Shown: positions 7,241 through 18,155, counted from the first letter of the stretch. The stretch is 64,000 nucleotides of DNA from a virus (IMGVR_UViG_3300025589_000004:1-64000); one strand, 5' to 3'. Notes: generated from the sequence alone by a model not told the origin. Numbers and translations are program-made.

Positions 7241-7308
7241 AATAATATTCCATTAAGTGATTAAATGATTTAATTAGAAATTTAGATTGTATTTATTATT
7301 ATACCATT

Positions 7309-7804
7309 TTAAATTAAATTTATTCCTTCTTTTTTAGCTTTACTGATAAGACGCATAAAATCATCATGTATTCTATCTAAATCTATTAAATATTCAATTT
7401 CACTAACATCATCTGGTATTTCACCTTCTTCTAAAGTAGCACGTATATTTGCCATTTTTGTGTGTGGAATATTATAATCTGCATACCAAGAGACATCAAT
7501 ACCAGACCTTAATCCTTCACATATCTCATACATTTGTTCTCGTGTAAATTTTGGATTGGCATATATTGTTATATCTAAATTTTCTAATAATCCGTCAATT
7601 ATTTCTTCCATTTGTTCATAATTAAACTTAGGATTTGCATACCAAGAAACATCTAAATTATCTGATAATCCATTTAGTTATTGTTTTTAATGCCTTGATA
7701 TAATATAGATTTTTGCATTTCGTCGAATTCTGAATCAGATTTTTTCATTTGTTTTTTGTATTGATTTAAGAAATTATAATAATCTTATTATAATAATCTT
7801 TCAT
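7309..7804 (-). pseudogene. 26-aa-repeat family protein, copy 1 (5' part disrupted; 7309-7611 still open)
   Basis: GLxxxLDVSWYANPKFxxxQMxxI repeats continue in frame to 7677; an out-of-frame upstream piece (FDEMQKSILYQGIKNN) and a 14-bp tandem duplication at 7773-7800 break the N-terminus. Confidence 0.7.
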
Positions 7805-7837
7805 TTTAATTTTTCTATAAATTATATATTTTGTTAT

Positions 7838-8482
7838 CTATTTATATAGAAAATATAGTATTTTTGAAATGAATTTTCTATTTTCTTCAGTTTTTTCAGT
7901 AAAAGATGGGTAAAAATCTATAAATTTATGATTTCCAATAAGATATTCATTAAAATTAACATTTTCTATTGTTTTTTCTGTATTTTTTGGTAATTTAATT
8001 AAAAATCTCTGTAATTTTTTATAGTTTTTATTTGTATTTTTAGTAAAAACATCTATTTTGTCATATTTACCATCTTTAATTATATCTATATTATCTAAAA
8101 TCTCTAAAAAAATACTATTTTCTTTATTTTTTTCATATAATTCCTCTAATTTATATCCAGTATATATACAAATCCGTTTTTCTGAATACTTTTCTTTAAT
8201 AAATCTGATAATTTCTAATAAAGAATGTATTTGGTCAAAAGGCTCGCCACCTAAAAATACAAAATAATCTATATAATCTTTACAGCTTATCATATCTGTT
8301 TTAATTTTATATAAAAAATCTTCTATTTTAATAGAATTACCTTCATTAAAATCTAATAATATAATATTTTGGCAATCTGGACAACGAATAGTACATCCTT
8401 GAAAATAAATTAAATAACTAAAATATCCAGGTACTTCTAAAAAACCAATATTACTATATTCAATTTTCGGTGTTATTATCAT
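7838..8482 (-). CDS. nrdG: Anaerobic RNR activase (radical SAM)
   Basis: GCTIRCPDC (CxxxCxxC), LGGEP, IYTGY, DIIKDGKY; close to nrdD. Confidence 0.92.
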   Translation of the reverse strand: MIITPKIEYSNIGFLEVPGYFSYLIYFQGCTIRCPDCQNIILLDFNEGNSIKIEDFLYKIKTDMISCKDYIDYFVFLGGEPFDQIHSLLEIIRFIKEKYSEKRICIYTGYKLEELYEKNKENSIFLEILDNIDIIKDGKYDKIDVFTKNTNKNYKKLQRFLIKLPKNTEKTIENVNFNEYLIGNHKFIDFYPSFTEKTEENRKFISKILYFLYK

Positions 8483-8492
8483 TTAATATTAA

Positions 8493-8756
8493 TTAATTAT
8501 TATCTAAATATTCATTTATATCTAAATTATTTTTCAAACAATATCTTATTTCTTTCATTTGTTCAGCAGAAAATTTAGGATTAGCGTATATTGAAACATC
8601 TAAATCATCTAAAAGCCCATAATAAATTATTTCAGCTTGATATTTATCAAATTTCGGATTAGCATACCAACTAATATCAAGACCATTTTCCAAACCTTTA
8701 ATTATCAAAGAAGCTAATGTATTAAATGTTCGATTTTTGTTATCTGTTTTGTACAT
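8493..8756 (-). CDS. 26-aa-repeat family protein, copy 2
   Basis: GLENGLDISWYANPKF...GLLDDLDVSIYANPKFSAEQMKEIR; open frame extends upstream of the ATG with VDISWLLD. Confidence 0.75.
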   Translation of the reverse strand: MYKTDNKNRTFNTLASLIIKGLENGLDISWYANPKFDKYQAEIIYYGLLDDLDVSIYANPKFSAEQMKEIRYCLKNNLDINEYLDNN

Positions 8757-8848
8757 TTCTTTGTCTAATAACCAAGATATATCAACATTAATTAATCTTT
8801 TAATTATCTGTTTTGTAGATGAATTTAATATTTAAATATATTTATAAT

Positions 8849-9772
8849 TTATTTATAATTTAATATTAAATAATCATAAAATTTATTTGGAACTACAGAA
8901 TCACCAAAAGTTTTGATAATAGCATAATCTTTATCTATATCATCATTCTTTTTACAAAATAATCTATACCATATAGTGGCTTGTGGATTAAGTAATTTAT
9001 TAGCTAAAGCAACTTTTTCCTCAAAAAAATCAATTTGTTTATCTTGATTATTACAACCAATTTCTGTTATCCAAATAGGTTTATTTAACATATTATGTTT
9101 TTTAATATAATCTATCATCTCTAATAATCTAACTGTTTCTTTTATTGAATTGATATAACAATGTACAGATATGATATCAGAAACATCATTTACTAAAAAT
9201 GATTTTAAAATTTCATAATTATATATTTTCCATTCGTCATGATAAATTTCTTGACATATATTTACTGGACTCATTGATATAACTTTAATATTCTTATTCT
9301 TAGATTTAATATATTCATAGATTTTACGTATAGCAATAAAACAATCATTAAATGATTTAAATTGTTCACCGATATATGTCATATGAGGCAATTCATTAAA
9401 TATTTCTATATATCTAATATTAGTATCATTTATTAAACTATATAATCTTTGTTTTGTGATATTATAATTATTATATGTATCTAATAAAGCTATTGGTGTT
9501 AATTTTGCATTTATCATTCTATTAATAAGATAGATATAATTTGGCATTAATAGCATATCTTTCGGCATAGGAATTCTGATAAATCCATTTCTTACTTTAT
9601 TTTTATTCATTTTATATAATGAATTTATCATTATATCAAAATCTAAATTAGATTTAAGCTCATTTTGAAATACAACAAAGCCATTAATCCATCTATCAGA
9701 TATATCTGTTTTTGGAATTTTGATAATTTTAAGTAATACTAATAATCTTAATAATAATTCTTTTATATTCAT
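8849..9772 (-). CDS. Glycoside hydrolase, clan GH-A-like, with N-terminal hydrophobic segment
   Basis: IEIFNELP (acid/base), IISVHCY, KPIWITEIG (nucleophile). Confidence 0.8.
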   Translation of the reverse strand: MNIKELLLRLLVLLKIIKIPKTDISDRWINGFVVFQNELKSNLDFDIMINSLYKMNKNKVRNGFIRIPMPKDMLLMPNYIYLINRMINAKLTPIALLDTYNNYNITKQRLYSLINDTNIRYIEIFNELPHMTYIGEQFKSFNDCFIAIRKIYEYIKSKNKNIKVISMSPVNICQEIYHDEWKIYNYEILKSFLVNDVSDIISVHCYINSIKETVRLLEMIDYIKKHNMLNKPIWITEIGCNNQDKQIDFFEEKVALANKLLNPQATIWYRLFCKKNDDIDKDYAIIKTFGDSVVPNKFYDYLILNYK

Positions 9773-9774
9773 AA

Positions 9775-10101
9775 CTAATTTAAATTAAATATTAAACTTA
9801 ATAAAAATATTTCTTGTTTTTGTTTATAATCATATATCTGATTTGCAATTAATGACACATCTAATTTTTCACTTAAAAACGATTTAATTATTTTCATATC
9901 ATTTATTGAAAATATTGGATTAGCATACCAAGATACATCTAAGCCTTCACAAAGTCCTTTAAATATCATTTTCATTTGACTAGAGTCAAATCTTTCATCG
10001 CAATACCAAGATATATCTATACCGGTATTTATTCCTTTTAATATATATTCTCTTTGCATCACATCAAAATTTTTAAGAAAATTATCTGATAGCATATTCA
10101 T
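9775..10101 (-). CDS. 26-aa-repeat family protein, copy 3
   Basis: Three units: GIDISWYCDERF, GLDVSWYANPIF, KLDVSLIANQIY. Confidence 0.75.
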   Translation of the reverse strand: MNMLSDNFLKNFDVMQREYILKGINTGIDISWYCDERFDSSQMKMIFKGLCEGLDVSWYANPIFSINDMKIIKSFLSEKLDVSLIANQIYDYKQKQEIFLLSLIFNLN

Positions 10102-10127
10102 ACTATTTTTTTATGCAAAAAAAGATA

Positions 10128-10769
10128 TTAAGATGGAGAACTTCTATATATTATATTCATGCCTGCATCTGGAAATACATCATAAGTTATATTATTATCA
10201 TAAATATTTATAAAATATGAATTATCTGAAAATAAATATTTAATTAAATTATCTTCATTAAAAAACATTTTTAAGAATAATTCTTTTTCTTTTTTATCAT
10301 TAATAAGTGGTGTTGTTATTATACCTGTATCTATCCATATTTCTGAATCTAATATATCTTTAATTTTAATAATTGCATCTTTTATATCATCAATATTTTC
10401 TAGATTTTGTTTAATAGATAATTTACCATCAACTTTTTCTTCTTCTGTAGCTTTAGTATTTAAATATATTTTAAATCTATGTTTCTTTAGAACTTCTAAT
10501 ATAATTGAAATCAAATCTATTAAATTATTATTATTACAAAAAGCTAATAAGAAAACTAATTTTAAATCATAATCTGAAATTCTAATACCAGAAGTAATAT
10601 CCATATCTTGGAGTTTATTATAAAAATCTTTGCTAAATAAGAATATCTTATCATGATTCTTCTTTGCTTCTTTAATTAAATTATCTACATTTACATCAAG
10701 ATTAACCACTAATGAATGTGTAGATGATGAATTAGTTTCAAATATACCTTGTCTTATTTTTATTGTCAT
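10128..10769 (-). CDS. Conserved phage hypothetical protein (FETNSSSTHS N-terminal motif)
   Basis: IRQGIFETNSSSTHSLVV motif recalled from other phage proteins; GAGG RBS. Confidence 0.65.
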   Translation of the reverse strand: MTIKIRQGIFETNSSSTHSLVVNLDVNVDNLIKEAKKNHDKIFLFSKDFYNKLQDMDITSGIRISDYDLKLVFLLAFCNNNNLIDLISIILEVLKKHRFKIYLNTKATEEEKVDGKLSIKQNLENIDDIKDAIIKIKDILDSEIWIDTGIITTPLINDKKEKELFLKMFFNEDNLIKYLFSDNSYFINIYDNNITYDVFPDAGMNIIYRSSPS

Positions 10770-10807
10770 AATATCCTCACTATAATTATTATATAATTAT
10801 ACTATTT

Positions 10808-11002
10808 TTAATTATTTTCTACATTACTATTTTTCTTTTTTTTTAATGATTGTCTATATTCTGCCATTTTTAACTCGTTAAATTCTGGAAAAGCACAAAC
10901 AGAAACATCTAATCCATCTTCAAGTCCTAATCTAATCTCCATCATTTGGTTGACTGTGAATAATTTATTTACATAAATAGATACATCTACTCCATTTTTC
11001 AA
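10808..11002 (-). CDS. 26-aa-repeat family protein, copy 4 (start uncertain)
   Basis: GVDVSIYVNKLFTVNQMMEIRLGLEDGLDVS; frame continues upstream as LFNIHQIIEIRTGL behind an AGGAG with no ATG. Confidence 0.65.
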   Translation of the reverse strand: MKNGVDVSIYVNKLFTVNQMMEIRLGLEDGLDVSVCAFPEFNELKMAEYRQSLKKKKNSNVENN

Positions 11003-11058
11003 TCCAGTACGTATTTCTATTATCTGATGAATATTAAATAATCTCCTTTTTTTAAATA

Positions 11059-11907
11059 TTACCCAATACCACCTAAAGATGTTTTATTTATTAAATACAT
11101 TCTTTGTTGTTTAGCTTTTTCACTATACAAATCTGTATTATATTCCATTATAACCAATTTTTTGGATTTATTATTATTTATCATATTATCAATTTCAGCA
11201 CTAAATCTATTAATATCTATATTATTACCTTGTGTAGGTTGCCAAGATGTTTCTACGAATATATATTCCAATTCATTAAATAATTGATTTTCTGTCAACC
11301 AGCGATAATCGGTAGAATTATATTGTAAATGTGTAGTATATATTTCAACATCAGTAAGATGGCTTTTCATTGTAATAAGACAATCTTTCAGTATATTGAT
11401 ATTCCTAAATCTTTCGTTAGATTCAATTGAAAGTAGATAGCCAGAGACATAATCTTTGATTTTATTATGAATGGTCTTCCATATATTTATATGTTTACCA
11501 ATATCACGCCAGTCAGGAGATTTATCGTCAGTATATAAACATGGAAATATTGCTATTCCATTATCAAGAAAATATTGAATTTTTTCTATTGCTTTATTTA
11601 AATTATCATTATTAATCATAACTAGATTTTTATCGGTTATATTGCCCGCCTCATCAGCAGGTGATAGTAAAAATGTAATTGATGGTTGAAATCCTTTAGG
11701 ACATCCGCTTTTAATATATTCAGAAACAAATTTAATTTCTTGTTTATCTTTATTCAATATATCCCAAGTAGCTTCTAGTCTGCCATTATAATTATAAAAT
11801 AATGGACAATAAATTTTATTATTACCTATCTTAATTGGTTTATATATACCAAATAAGCATTTTAATAAATAAACGATTAATTTTTCTAATATATTCATAA
11901 TATACAT
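11059..11907 (-). CDS. Putative glycoside hydrolase-like TIM-barrel protein with N-terminal hydrophobic segment
   Basis: LSIESNE, TTHLQ and LVIMEYN at spacings compatible with clan GH-A catalytic Glu residues. Confidence 0.5.
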   Translation of the reverse strand: MYIMNILEKLIVYLLKCLFGIYKPIKIGNNKIYCPLFYNYNGRLEATWDILNKDKQEIKFVSEYIKSGCPKGFQPSITFLLSPADEAGNITDKNLVMINNDNLNKAIEKIQYFLDNGIAIFPCLYTDDKSPDWRDIGKHINIWKTIHNKIKDYVSGYLLSIESNERFRNINILKDCLITMKSHLTDVEIYTTHLQYNSTDYRWLTENQLFNELEYIFVETSWQPTQGNNIDINRFSAEIDNMINNNKSKKLVIMEYNTDLYSEKAKQQRMYLINKTSLGGIG

Positions 11908-11950
11908 CCTTTAATTATTATAATTTTTTGCTTTTTATTTCTTTTAAAAA

Positions 11951-12107
11951 TCCGCACCATGTTTTGGACTGCCACGTCCAGTCGGTTCAGTTGCCTTCAA
12001 ACGGCCCTCTCGGACCTTGGCCACCCTAGTCTCCCGTTTAACTCTCCGTTTCACGCTTGGCATGCGCTACTCCTTCAAGCCCCCGGCTTCAGCCGGGGGT
12101 GGTTGAC
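11951..12107 (-). mobile_element. Truncated IS200/IS605-family end resembling IscB omegaRNA/HEARO 5' region; no iscB ORF
   Basis: About 60% GC island. Minus strand starts GTCAACCACCCCCGGCTGAAGCCGGGGGCTTG, then hairpins GGTCC-GAGA-GGGCC and TGGAC-GTGGCA-GTCCA. Confidence 0.8.
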
Positions 12108-12162
12108 TATATAATCCATTTAATCGATTTGTATTGATATTCATTTTCTTCTTCCTATAATT

Positions 12163-12522
12163 TCATTTGATAAGTTCATTTAATGTATTTATTATTTCCA
12201 CATATTCATTTTTTTCTATATTACCAGATTCCAATAATTTATCTAAGACGGTTTTTATTTCAATTAATTCAGTATTAATATTAGATTTATCTAAAGATTG
12301 ATATATTGTAAACAATAAATTGTTACAATGTAGAAGTAAATTAAATCCCTGTTCAAATAATATATCTGATATAATTTTGTTTTCAATTTTAGAATATATA
12401 TTATTAATATATTTAGTAAATGATAATAATTTTTCTTTTATATCTTTATTTTGTAAATTATTAATAAAAGTAGTAAATAATTTATATTCAAATTTAAAAT
12501 TAATATCACCTATTTCAGTCAT
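12163..12522 (-). CDS. Hypothetical protein
   Basis: 119 aa ORF overlapping the end of the holin gene. Confidence 0.55.
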   Translation of the reverse strand: MTEIGDINFKFEYKLFTTFINNLQNKDIKEKLLSFTKYINNIYSKIENKIISDILFEQGFNLLLHCNNLLFTIYQSLDKSNINTELIEIKTVLDKLLESGNIEKNEYVEIINTLNELIK

Positions 12523-12961
12523 TTATTTTTTTTCCTTTTTGATTATTTGCTTTAATTTTTTCTACCGTTCTGGATATGATATAATTACCTGTTATATAAC
12601 CAATTAATATAATTAAGTCTAAATCCAAATCAATTTTGATTAATGTCCGCTGTTTAATCATCATAGCAAATGGATATACTATATTATTCCATATACCATA
12701 AGTAAACATAATAAAACAAACAATATACATTAATAATGGTCTCCAAGAACGATAAAATGCTGAACCAACATTAACTTCATTTTCCAATAACTTCATTTTG
12801 AAATTATTATCAAATTCCATTGCTTTTGTTTCAATCTCATATTTTAGTTTTGTATTAAGGTCTTTATCATGAACAAGCTGGTCTATTATATTAAATAATC
12901 CTTTAGTAAAGTTACTAGCTAAATCTAATATTTTATCCCTAAAATCAGAAAAAATGCTCAT
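12515..12961 (-). CDS. Putative holin (3TM/GTA-holin-like)
   Basis: RSWRPLLMYIVC followed by hydrophobic helices and YIISRTVEKIK ending. Confidence 0.75.
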   Translation of the reverse strand: MSIFSDFRDKILDLASNFTKGLFNIIDQLVHDKDLNTKLKYEIETKAMEFDNNFKMKLLENEVNVGSAFYRSWRPLLMYIVCFIMFTYGIWNNIVYPFAMMIKQRTLIKIDLDLDLIILIGYITGNYIISRTVEKIKANNQKGKKIND

Positions 12962-12990
12962 AATTAATTCTCCTTATTAATTATATTTAT

Positions 12991-14313
12991 TTATTCACCA
13001 TCTATTTTTTTAAGATAATCATAAAACATTTGTTTGGCTATATTAATATCCAATCCATTATTATTTAATATATTTTCTGGTATTTTATTGAAAAATGTAT
13101 CTATAATTTTAGTATCAAAATTGTCAGATAAATTATTAATTTGTTCTGCAGATCCACTAATTTCATCTAATATCAAATTATCATTATTCAACTCAAAATC
13201 ATAATCCATAATAACATTTTTATTATTCAGATTTTCTTTGACTTTATTTAATAAAATAAACTTAATATCATTGTTACTTAATTTATAATATAATTCACTA
13301 AAGAATATTCTGATATAAATCTTGTTTGTATTACTCATAAATCGTTTTTCTATATATTCAGCTAATTTATTTGCTAATATATCTAGTTTTTCTATACAAA
13401 TATCAGAATATTTAAAATTTAATAATTTAATAAAATCATTAAAATTAATTTTAATAAATGATAATATATTAGAAGTATTAAAAAATTGTATATTGTTATT
13501 ATCAGTATTCAAAATATAATATCCAAATTCTTTATTATTTGTATCATTAAATGTATGTGGTAATATGCTTCCAATAAACATTAATTTTTGATTATTTTCT
13601 GAAATATTTATTTCTTTTTTTGTGTGTATATGTCCAGCGAATGCAATACCAGAATTATTTAATAATTTTCTAATATCAGATAAATCAAAAGAATCATATT
13701 GAAGAGAAACATTATTAATATTATTTGTTACATTATCAAATAATATTTTATCAGATAAACTAATTTCTAATTCATTATTTAGAAAAATATCATTATCTAC
13801 TTTATTATATTTAATATATAGACTATTATTAAATGGATGATGAGTAAATATATAGTCATATTTATTATTCTGATAATTAGCTAATTCAGCTTTATATGCT
13901 TGATTATTAATAAATGGTATTAATAGACATTTTTTATTATATAAAGATATTTCTGTTATTCTACTAATTATATCAATTTGTTCTAGAGATAGATTTTCTA
14001 GTAATTTAAGTCCATGAATAACATCGGTATCTTTTGCTTCTTTATAATAAACATCATGATTACCTAAAATAAAATATATTTTATTTGTAAATGTATTTAG
14101 TAATTTTTTGATAATTTCTGATAATATATTATATACATATATATTTAGATTTTTTTTATCATTAATAAAATCACCTAAAAATATACAAGTAGTTATATTC
14201 TCTTCTTTAGCTTTAGTACACATCATATCAACTGCTGATAATGCATCATTAAGTCTATCTTCATTATTTGATTCTATACCTAAATGAATATCACTAAATA
14301 ACATTATTTTCAT
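12991..14313 (-). CDS. Recombination endonuclease subunit (gp47/SbcD/Mre11-like)
   Basis: FSDIHLG, FLGDF, LGNHD, FTHH, AGHIH metallophosphoesterase motifs. Confidence 0.9.
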   Translation of the reverse strand: MKIMLFSDIHLGIESNNEDRLNDALSAVDMMCTKAKEENITTCIFLGDFINDKKNLNIYVYNILSEIIKKLLNTFTNKIYFILGNHDVYYKEAKDTDVIHGLKLLENLSLEQIDIISRITEISLYNKKCLLIPFINNQAYKAELANYQNNKYDYIFTHHPFNNSLYIKYNKVDNDIFLNNELEISLSDKILFDNVTNNINNVSLQYDSFDLSDIRKLLNNSGIAFAGHIHTKKEINISENNQKLMFIGSILPHTFNDTNNKEFGYYILNTDNNNIQFFNTSNILSFIKINFNDFIKLLNFKYSDICIEKLDILANKLAEYIEKRFMSNTNKIYIRIFFSELYYKLSNNDIKFILLNKVKENLNNKNVIMDYDFELNNDNLILDEISGSAEQINNLSDNFDTKIIDTFFNKIPENILNNNGLDINIAKQMFYDYLKKIDGE

Positions 14314-14329
14314 ATAATATAATTTCTAT

Positions 14330-15103
14330 TTAAGTTGTTATATATTTTTCAATTTCTGGTTTAATATCAATTCCATTTAATATTTTATCTCGTAATTCAA
14401 TAATTTTTTGTATATTATCAATATTAAATATCTTTTCTAAATTATTTATTAAATATTTCATATTTTCTATATCACTATCTTTAATCGTTATAATATATTC
14501 TGGTGCACTCATATATTCTGGTACAATTGACTTCAATATATATTCTTTGATTACATTAATTAAAGAACCATCATTTGTATATAAATATCTATATTTTTCA
14601 TTAATAGCTTTGTTATTATAATTATAACACTGAATAAAATATATTCTTCTCATATTTTTATCATCAATATTAAAATTTGCATATAAACTAATATCTACTC
14701 CTTTACTAATGCCGAGTCTTATAAAATTCATTTGTTTTTCATTGAAAAAATGTGGTATTGCAAAAATTGAGACATCAATACCATCTTGAAGACCAATAAA
14801 TATTTCTTTAGCTTGAAAATAATTTAATTTATGATTAGCCAGCCATGAAACATCTAAATTGCTTTCCAATCCATAATAAATCAAGTCAATTATCTGATAA
14901 TCATTTGTTGCTTCTACTGAATTAAGTTTTTTAATAATATTATAATCTAATAACCAAGATATATCTAATCCTTTTAAAATACAAGACCATAATAAATTTT
15001 TAATATATTTTATAATATCATCATGAAAGTTTTGATTTGTAATGTTAAATTCATGCAATATAATATCTAAAACATTATCAAGATTAGTATTCATACTATT
15101 CAA
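14330..15103 (-). CDS. 26-aa-repeat family protein, copy 5
   Basis: Four units: GLDISWLLD, NLDVSWLAN, GIDVSIFAI, GVDISLYAN. Confidence 0.75.
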   Translation of the reverse strand: MNSMNTNLDNVLDIILHEFNITNQNFHDDIIKYIKNLLWSCILKGLDISWLLDYNIIKKLNSVEATNDYQIIDLIYYGLESNLDVSWLANHKLNYFQAKEIFIGLQDGIDVSIFAIPHFFNEKQMNFIRLGISKGVDISLYANFNIDDKNMRRIYFIQCYNYNNKAINEKYRYLYTNDGSLINVIKEYILKSIVPEYMSAPEYIITIKDSDIENMKYLINNLEKIFNIDNIQKIIELRDKILNGIDIKPEIEKYITT

Positions 15104-17629: not shown

Positions 17630-17657
17630 ATAATAATTATTTTTATATTTAATTATA

Positions 17658-18155
17658 CTATTTTAAGTCTTTAATAGTAGTCTCTGGAATTTGAATTAAA
17701 TTATCTAATAATCCAGCTTTTTTATAATCAATAATTATATCTTCAGTTATCATTGATTTATCATATGGATAAACATAATATATAGTCTTAATTCCAGATA
17801 ATAAAATATGCTTAAAACAAATAAAACAAGGCATATGTGTACAATATAATATTGAATTATTTATATCTATATTATTTTTTAATGCAAAAAATAATGCATT
17901 CATTTCTGCATGAATCTCGAATAAATTACTCCAAACAGAATGTTCAGCTCTATCAAACTCTTTATTATAATTTGGAAATTTTTCATTACAATTAATAAAT
18001 CCGGAAATTGTGCCATTAATTCCAGAAGATATTATTCTATTATTCTTAACTACAATTGCAGCCACTTTAAATGAAACACATTTACTTAATTTAGCTAAAT
18101 TTAATACTATATTTGCAAATATGATATTATTAGTATTTATATTATTCAAACTCAT
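17658..18155 (-). CDS. dCMP deaminase
   Basis: HAEMNA and PCFIC zinc motifs. Confidence 0.93.
   Translation of the reverse strand: MSLNNINTNNIIFANIVLNLAKLSKCVSFKVAAIVVKNNRIISSGINGTISGFINCNEKFPNYNKEFDRAEHSVWSNLFEIHAEMNALFFALKNNIDINNSILYCTHMPCFICFKHILLSGIKTIYYVYPYDKSMITEDIIIDYKKAGLLDNLIQIPETTIKDLK

Follow-up and report, generated by a model that had tools for sequence, protein, structure and literature searches.

The closest described systems to the genes considered here are the polyvalent proteins (Iyer, Burroughs, Anand, de Souza and Aravind 2017, PMC5512222) and the small early genes of the hyperplastic regions of T4-like phages, with their promoter-plus-stem-loop (PeSL) cassettes (PMC4122927). 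We analysed five open reading frames (ORFs), R1 to R5, of a viral contig (IMGVR_UViG_3300025589_000004:1-64000), which are built from copies of one 26-residue unit. The source DNA is a single contig of 98,811 bp with 22.8% GC, and the window, the stretch of 64,000 nucleotides analysed, is its first 64 kb. The same repeat occurs inside longer proteins of the polyvalent kind, where it is fused to ArdC-N with an MPTase-PolyVal zincin, LPD1, LPD18, LPD25, DUF3846, DUF3849 or a CHC2 primase domain, and where the arrays comprise 7-14 profile-matched stretches of up to about three units each. In contrast, R1 to R5 are 64-257 aa long, consist of the repeat only and contain no Pfam, PHROG or NCBIfam domain, and hence lack the two or more distinct effector or enzymatic domains by which a polyvalent protein is recognized. 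In a term search of its main text, PMC5512222 did not refer to FapA or to sequence or tandem repeats in this sense. Like the T4-like hyperplastic regions, the locus has small non-core genes interspersed with core replication genes and differing from one relative to the next. It differs from the PeSL arrangement in having no promoter-plus-stem-loop cassette and in that the copies belong to one diverged protein family rather than being unrelated ORFs.

Our reading, to which we assign a probability of roughly 0.5, is that R1 to R5, together with two further copies beside the DNA polymerase gene (R6 and R7), are long-diverged paralogues encoding a small cytoplasmic protein, each of them combining a capping half-unit with about three 26-residue units of a solenoid repeat. 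This family would have duplicated long ago in the phage lineage, and its copies would now occupy gene junctions in a tightly packed early/replication block, probably co-transcribed with their neighbours, with at least R1 and R4 having lost their original 5' ends. Within the unit, structural positions are invariant, and the variable positions are taken to be surface-exposed. The arrays may then be produced early in infection and bind proteins as adaptors or decoys, with the diverged paralogues offering different binding surfaces, and the same module may tether effector domains in polyvalent proteins.

The initial annotation had described five ORFs on one strand, each of 2-4 units with a period of 26 residues, and a hidden Markov model (HMM) of the unit bears this out. 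The genome, however, holds seven members rather than five, with 24 units in seven loci (regular-expression scan, then unit HMM). The loci are as follows, with E-values for a full-length external HMM.

7309-7611, minus strand: R1 (locus 7309..7677); frame open over 7312-7677, first canonical start ATG at 7611; E 6.5e-35, HMM positions 28-119.
7680..7742, minus strand: short ORF fragment in another frame (MKKSDSEFDEMQKSILYQGIKNNN, then a stop), resembling the family N-terminal cap and collinear with R1.
8493-8756, minus strand: R2 (locus 8493..8831); ATG at 8756, frame open to 8831; E 5.8e-29.
9775-10101, minus strand: R3; ATG start, cap FLKNFDVMQREYILKG; E 5.9e-29.
10808-11002, minus strand: R4 (locus 10808..11083); sole canonical start TTG at 11002, within a unit; E 3.4e-23.
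14330-15103, minus strand: R5, 254-257 aa; ATG at 15094, one base past the gp41 stop codon; E 1.7e-24.
76,929-77,384 of the genome, minus strand: further copy next to the DNA polymerase gene.
78,731-79,108 of the genome, plus strand: further copy next to the DNA polymerase gene.

To avoid circularity, two HMMs were built from database homologues only, without any window sequence. The circularly permuted unit HMM (consensus ADPEFNWEQMEEIRLGLEKGLDVSIY) matches all seven loci with E-values down to 5.6e-16, and the full-length HMM of the typical small protein matches all seven at E 6.5e-35 to 3.4e-23. The unit consensus is R-x-G-L-E-x-G-L-D-V-S-x-Y-A-x-P-x-F-x-x-x-Q-M-x-E-I (26 residues), and the signature residues G3, L4, D9, V10, S11, Y13, A14, F18, Q22, M23 and I26 are present in most window units. 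Unit boundaries in R1 to R5 are 78 nt apart, except for 1-residue insertions in R3 and R5.

At codon positions 1, 2 and 3, identity between units is higher than composition predicts by 0.23, 0.32 and 0.11, respectively. The seven frames are open over 91-261 codons, whereas chance would give about 12 codons in DNA where 8.5% of trinucleotides are stops (P 3e-4 to 9e-11 for each frame staying open at 23% GC). The genetic code is the standard one, with long ORFs terminating at all three stop codons. Because conservation follows codon position and the frames are open far past chance, the repeat sequence is protein-coding and not a DNA repeat.

The copies differ in the state of their 5' ends. R1 has units at 7600-7674, 7522-7599 and 7444-7521 and ends in an acidic tail of 44 aa; its first unit lies immediately after two TAA codons and upstream of the first start codon. 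Since that unit precedes the ATG, R1 is either 5'-decapitated or initiated at some other start. The fragment at 7680..7742 aligns with HMM positions 18-38 only weakly, a match not significant alone (E 3.3); its position and collinearity are nonetheless suggestive of the frameshifted original 5' end of R1, and a small frameshifting insertion is the simplest reading of this upstream region. A programmed -1 frameshift joining the fragment to R1 was rejected, as two TAA codons lie upstream in the R1 frame and there is no proper slippery heptamer. R2 has units at 8625-8702 and 8547-8624, a partial unit at 8517-8546 and a degenerate first unit (VDISWLL, 8730-8804) that is mostly upstream of the ATG, with no canonical start before it. 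R3, with units at 9964-10038, 9886-9963 and 9808-9882 and a stop codon overlapping the start of the downstream glycoside hydrolase (GH)-like gene, looks the most intact copy. R4 has two units only (10934-11011 and 10856-10933), followed by a basic tail; a Shine-Dalgarno-like site (AAAGGAGA, approximately 11043-11050) lies 40 nt upstream of its TTG, with no canonical start behind it. In R5, an N-terminal region and a degenerate LDISWLL unit (14918-14989) precede units at 14801-14878, 14723-14800 and 14642-14719, and the C-terminal region of about 95 aa is an orphan with no relatives in the database. An identical R5 was found on another contig of 108 kb.

A short cap is recognizable in R3 and a charged tail in R4, and R2, R5, R6 and R7 share the degenerate LDISWLL first unit. 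A leader-only HMM gave no significant N-terminal cap in this genome, and a string just after nrdG (NKIYNL), considered as a cap, was dropped as a chance occurrence on the same grounds. The proposal that several copies are 5'-truncated holds clearly for R1 and R4, in which repeat-coding sequence precedes the first ATG, GTG or TTG, and is arguable for R2. Some 5' decay of the copies is thus likely, because R1 and R4 begin mid-repeat.

The two polymerase-side copies are one gene apart and immediately upstream of the polymerase gene; the one at 78,731 has no canonical start before its degenerate first unit. A perfect 52-bp inverted repeat occurs in identical copies at genome positions 70,171-70,222 and 81,846-81,897 (L001:6171-6222 and L001:17846-17897). 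Its left copy abuts an ORF starting FAKYANPKIPDKIM, a possible decapitated eighth member whose match to the full-length HMM is not significant (E 1.3).

The paralogues are 35-56% identical in protein over three units and 63-73% in DNA, and the longest exact DNA run shared by any two copies is 21 nt, compared with 10-12 nt in random segment pairs. Maximum-likelihood analysis with 47 outside homologues grouped six of the seven copies with three outside proteins (support 93/87) and placed R4, with its two units only, elsewhere; branches are long, and the clustering of the copies beats 499 of 500 label shuffles. With DNA identity low and the copies in one clade with long branches, the pattern fits an old duplication within the lineage. 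The copies form a real paralogous family of helical-repeat proteins, and two further suggestions of the initial annotation, that the family is expanding and decaying, accord with the single clade of six of seven copies and with the eroded appearance of some 5' ends.

The closest nrdD relative found was a 3.3-kb contig (L015) whose nrdD is 55% identical and in which nrdG overlaps nrdD with no repeat gene between them. Because this junction lacks an intervening gene, R1 would represent either an insertion in this phage or a loss in L015. A gp47 search for close relatives returned only distant loci without repeats.

We considered whether the copies might be mostly functionless decaying relics, perhaps pieces left from a longer array gene or from a tandem cluster that inserted genes split apart. 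In favour of this, R1 and R4 start mid-unit, no canonical start precedes the degenerate first unit of either R2 or the 78,731 copy, a frameshifted cap may lie upstream of R1, and long tandem arrays, of 8-17 units, occur in other phages. This explanation is nevertheless decidedly unlikely given the seven long open frames and the codon-position conservation, which denotes constraint at the protein level. Each copy also has its own non-repeat tail and stop codon, as do typical homologues of 95-135 aa, and the nrdG-nrdD adjacency in the relative argues that R1 was inserted rather than that nrdG invaded an array.

The order of the genes prompted a second alternative, already raised in the initial annotation, in which the repeat gene is a self-spreading module that enters intergenic sites and whose copies, through homologous recombination, allow the intervening genes to be exchanged. 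The copies are indeed interleaved with unrelated genes, R1 is absent from the same junction in L015, promoter-like motifs abut the stop codons of R1 and R4, and PeSL cassettes play such a role in T4-like phages (PMC4122927). These motifs, and two other features within the replication-gene block, are as follows.

7298..7306, minus strand: extended -10-like motif TGGTATAAT, immediately past the R1 stop codon, ahead of nrdD.
10796..10804, minus strand: motif TAGTATAAT, immediately past the R4 stop codon, ahead of a 213-aa hypothetical gene.
8849-9772: gene with a weak Glyco_hydro_cc match (GH1), inside the replication-gene block.
12515-12961: holin-like gene (GTA_holin_3TM), likewise within this block of replication genes.

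The motif T[AG]GTATAAT has 31 occurrences in the 98.8-kb genome (including 7298-7306, 10796-10804 and 17652-17660), and of the seven sites inspected with their context, most immediately precede a gene start in the same orientation. It is a candidate phage promoter of the extended -10 type, and among the copies it follows only R1 and R4. Terminator-like sites are no commoner than expected (one in 12.8 kb versus 1.0), nor are promoter-like sites (156 versus 146 in shuffles), and no promoter/terminator cassette of the PeSL type flanks the copies. Searches with Pfam and PHROGs found no GIY-YIG, HNH or LAGLIDADG nuclease domain in any copy, and no integrase or transposase domain, which sets them apart from free-standing homing endonuclease genes of the seg/mob type. 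The shared sequence is also too diverged, at 63-73% identity with exact runs of at most 21 nt, and the two GH-like genes are not detectable duplicates of one another. Finally, other phages keep their copies in plain tandem without interleaving (L006 has five such genes side by side, L005 and L013 three each), and the genes around those in L006 and L008 were not informative. We therefore regard a spreading or recombination module as weakly refuted and give it very little probability.

The tandem layouts bear likewise on the alternation with other genes that had been emphasized for this locus: it is present in this phage and is not a family trait, because elsewhere the genes are adjacent. It is not by itself statistically compelling either, since by our combinatorial estimate five copies among 14 genes would be non-adjacent by chance with a probability of approximately 0.13. 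The interleaved order looks like a quirk of this phage rather than a mechanism of mobility.

The gene content of the contig marks this uncultured phage as a very distant T4-like virus, with a gp41-type helicase, RecA/UvsX, NRDD, an nrdG-type activase, a gp47-type phosphoesterase and a family-B polymerase; the helicase (DnaB-type) is about 26% identical to cyanomyovirus proteins. Sequencing runs containing DNA of this phage are activated-sludge metagenomes. All seven copies sit among replication and nucleotide-metabolism genes, the neighbours of R1 to R5 being NRDD, the nrdG radical-SAM activase, the weak Glyco_hydro_cc gene, the Metallophos/gp47 gene and the DnaB-type helicase/gp41 gene. Domain matches thus confirm the earlier naming of nrdD, nrdG, gp47 and gp41. 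Of two genes that had been called GH, the first has its weak Glyco_hydro_cc match and the second (GH2, 11059-11907) has no Pfam match and no detectable similarity to the first, which ruled out the pair as duplicated units of GH gene plus repeat gene.

The presence of these genes raised the possibility that the repeats are cell-wall-binding or targeting modules of adjacent GH-like genes, supplied by frameshifting or as separate subunits. R2 and R4 each follow a GH-like gene, a holin-like gene is nearby, and the open frame of R4, which extends to 11083, shares 22 nt with the 3' end of the 282-aa gene upstream. However, no slippery site is seen at that overlap, only GH1 has even a weak GH match, and R1, R3, R5, R6 and R7 follow unrelated genes. 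The fusion partners of the family are cytoplasmic enzymes, and a lysin domain was found in none of the 120 long homologues among those listed; we attach scarcely any probability to this role.

Three other observations concern the surrounding genes. The nrdG activase of the window (7838-8482) is 214 aa long compared with 154 aa in L015, the extra 60 or so residues forming a C-terminal extension with no Pfam match. At the point corresponding to SSCC|RLLNDL in the window protein, the nrdD homologue of L015 (L015:641-3116) is split by an insert of roughly 150 residues, the ends of which are intein-like (C-F-N-G-D... and ...I-S-H-N-C) and which is itself disrupted by a stop between 2005 and 2085; this insert resembles a degenerate intein in the anaerobic ribonucleotide reductase. 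Amid DNA of 20-23% GC, a GC-rich island at 11951-12114, between a 119-aa ORF and the 282-aa gene, contains a 51-aa plus-strand ORF of odd composition.

The family extends far beyond this phage. The view that it has no named counterpart stands, as Pfam, PHROGs and NCBIfam have no match to the window proteins; no PDB sequence matches the repeat, no description of it was found in the literature, the ESM Atlas holds only unnamed viral clusters of the same repeat family and BFVD only two uncharacterized proteins of one uncultured siphovirus. An HMM search nonetheless revealed a widespread family, with matches in phage, plasmid and conjugative-element proteins; at E <=1e-3, database homologues comprise 519 proteins of 28-139 aa, 976 longer proteins and 3,715 representatives of 50%-identity clusters. 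The repeat defines a large, unnamed and uncharacterized family, present as free-standing small proteins in uncultured phages and as an accessory module in proteins of plasmids, conjugative elements and Bacillota chromosomes. A typical member has 95-135 aa, comes from a metagenomic phage contig and consists of a cap (MNKIYNNLSIENLIKTEWFNQFD..., the usual pattern in small homologues being NLxxENLxKTxWFNQFD), three units and a charged tail. Of 50,697 phage records, only three contain the repeat, all of them unannotated human-faecal entries ('Bacteriophage sp.'), and no cultured phage has it. On plasmids it is found in Clostridium perfringens and in Finegoldia magna pFMC, in the latter adjoining genes for a primase and a nuclease.

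A tblastn search of pFMC (L039, NC_010371.1, a 189-kb mobilizable plasmid) with a 93-aa family member gave at least 40 matching pieces, and this plasmid therefore appears to carry many repeat units or genes; one member is a 240-aa hypothetical protein encoded between an LPXTG protein gene and a NERD-type nuclease gene. When genome contigs were searched with a back-translated DVSIYAKPEF pattern, one exact coding match fell on a contig binned as Candidatus Woesearchaeota (L032), which may be a mis-binned virus or mobile element, because all other genome matches were in Bacillota.

Across the family, spacing is exactly 26 in 754 of about 965 unit pairs, and in 861 clean units of that period G3, D9, Y13, M23 and I26 are 94-99% conserved, while positions 2, 6, 12, 15, 17, 19-21 and 24 are variable. 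AlphaFold2 models from family alignments are confident and give a helical solenoid, in keeping with the helical repeat originally envisaged. The R3 model has a predicted local distance difference test score (pLDDT) of 89.7 and a predicted template modelling score (pTM) of 0.78; a 304-residue array has a pLDDT of 84.4, with about 98 in the repeat core. Each modelled unit is one 12-residue helix (F-x-x-x-Q-M-x-E-I-R-x-G-L), a three-residue helical turn (in D-V-S-x-Y-A) and loops. R1 to R5 have no Pfam match to TPR, HEAT, ankyrin, TALE, LRV or Sel1 repeats. Foldseek against the PDB gave a best E of 0.15, and the best Z in an exhaustive VIA-align comparison was 7.2, to designed helical repeats, which is within background for helical repeats. 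The predicted fold is thus a solenoid with no demonstrable solved relative.

Protein binding, as an adaptor or decoy, fits these data because an invariant core is combined with variable positions, diverged paralogues and diverse effector partners; we propose this function tentatively, at somewhat worse than even odds. Besides the polyvalent-type domains, the partners include RadC/JAB, a CHC2 primase finger, the PBECR4 nuclease, NT5C and isochorismatase. Fusions to ArdC-N with MPTase, LPD and nuclease domains, together with the pFMC copy by primase and nuclease genes, place the module in an intracellular, conflict-related context. A binder for anti-defence or host takeover, as initially suggested, is still plausible and would fit the fusion partners in conjugative-element polyvalent proteins.

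An alternative function, and the main rival, is that the acidic solenoid is a DNA mimic or anti-restriction factor acting on DNA-directed host enzymes, as Ocr and ArdA are, or a TALE-like nucleic-acid binder. The units are acidic (mean charge -1.6 per unit, consensus about -5; isoelectric point, pI, of R1 4.4), fusion partners of the module include ArdC-N, primase and nuclease domains, and TALE and BurrH are among the weak structural matches. The charge is, however, modest and variable, R6 and R7 being basic and the median pI of the small homologues 5.45; the TALE matches (Z <=5.8, root mean square deviation (rmsd) >11 A) amount to generic solenoid similarity; the many variable positions are unlike a two-residue code; and the FapA fusions have no DNA link. 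On balance a role of this kind is unlikely.

Several points count against the account of old solenoid paralogues with an adaptor or decoy role. No characterized homologue points to a function. The commonest fusions place the repeat ahead of FapA_N and FapA in Lachnospiraceae, and in Coprococcus hominis the module is N-terminal on a chromosomal FapA protein whose gene adjoins a response regulator-HD gene; the module is not specific to conflict systems, because it occurs on such chromosomal proteins. The polar residues D9, S11, Y13 and Q22 and the arginine at position 1 are conserved in every unit and could reflect binding to a ligand that is itself repetitive and not to a protein. The tree, built from 78 columns, leaves many forks unresolved, and the start codons of R1, R2, R4 and the 78,731 copy are uncertain, so that some copies may not be expressed.

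A broader version of the binding proposal, which we hold to be rather unlikely, is that invading DNA elements use the repeat as a module dedicated to binding a target. That target would be a conserved component of the host, possibly a partner of host FapA-type repeat proteins, which the module would seize or decoy; phages would produce the module free and early, and plasmids and integrative and conjugative elements would have it fused to ArdC, protease, nuclease or nucleotidase domains, with the paralogues forming a specificity panel against host variation. If the repeat does bind a host target, the seven diverged paralogues in one small phage would constitute a ready-made specificity series.

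With thousands of sequence clusters, the repeat is among the commoner uncharacterized modules of uncultured phages and of the mobile elements of gut Firmicutes. The defined unit and confident predicted fold provide a handle for annotating many 'hypothetical' proteins and for dissecting polyvalent and FapA-family proteins, whereas the gene-order pattern in this phage is itself probably unimportant.

Among named families, PF10950 (Organ_specific) is a plant family whose unrelated name automatic annotation attaches to long arrays and their clusters. These arrays score 49 bits against a gathering threshold of 22.5, but no single stretch passes alone (0 stretches) and R1 to R5 have no match even at E 1; from this score structure, and from the plant nature of the family, the score is read as a cumulative match to a repetitive profile and not as true membership. 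Among solved structures, the designed repeats (Z 7.2), TPR proteins (Z about 5) and TALE/BurrH (Z 4.9-5.8) share a helical solenoid with the modelled arrays. They have two helices per 33-34-residue unit rather than one helix and a turn per 26 residues, and the scores, accompanied by large rmsd, are within the range for unrelated helical repeats. The leucine-rich-repeat-variant protein (LRV, PDB 1lrv) likewise matches weakly (Z 4.9, rmsd 12.6 A over 207 residues) and has no sequence or Pfam relationship that we found, but it and other alpha/3-10 solenoids resemble the predicted fold in their short repeats (24 versus 26 residues), in which an alpha-helix alternates with a short helical turn, and in the stacking of these repeats into a solenoid.

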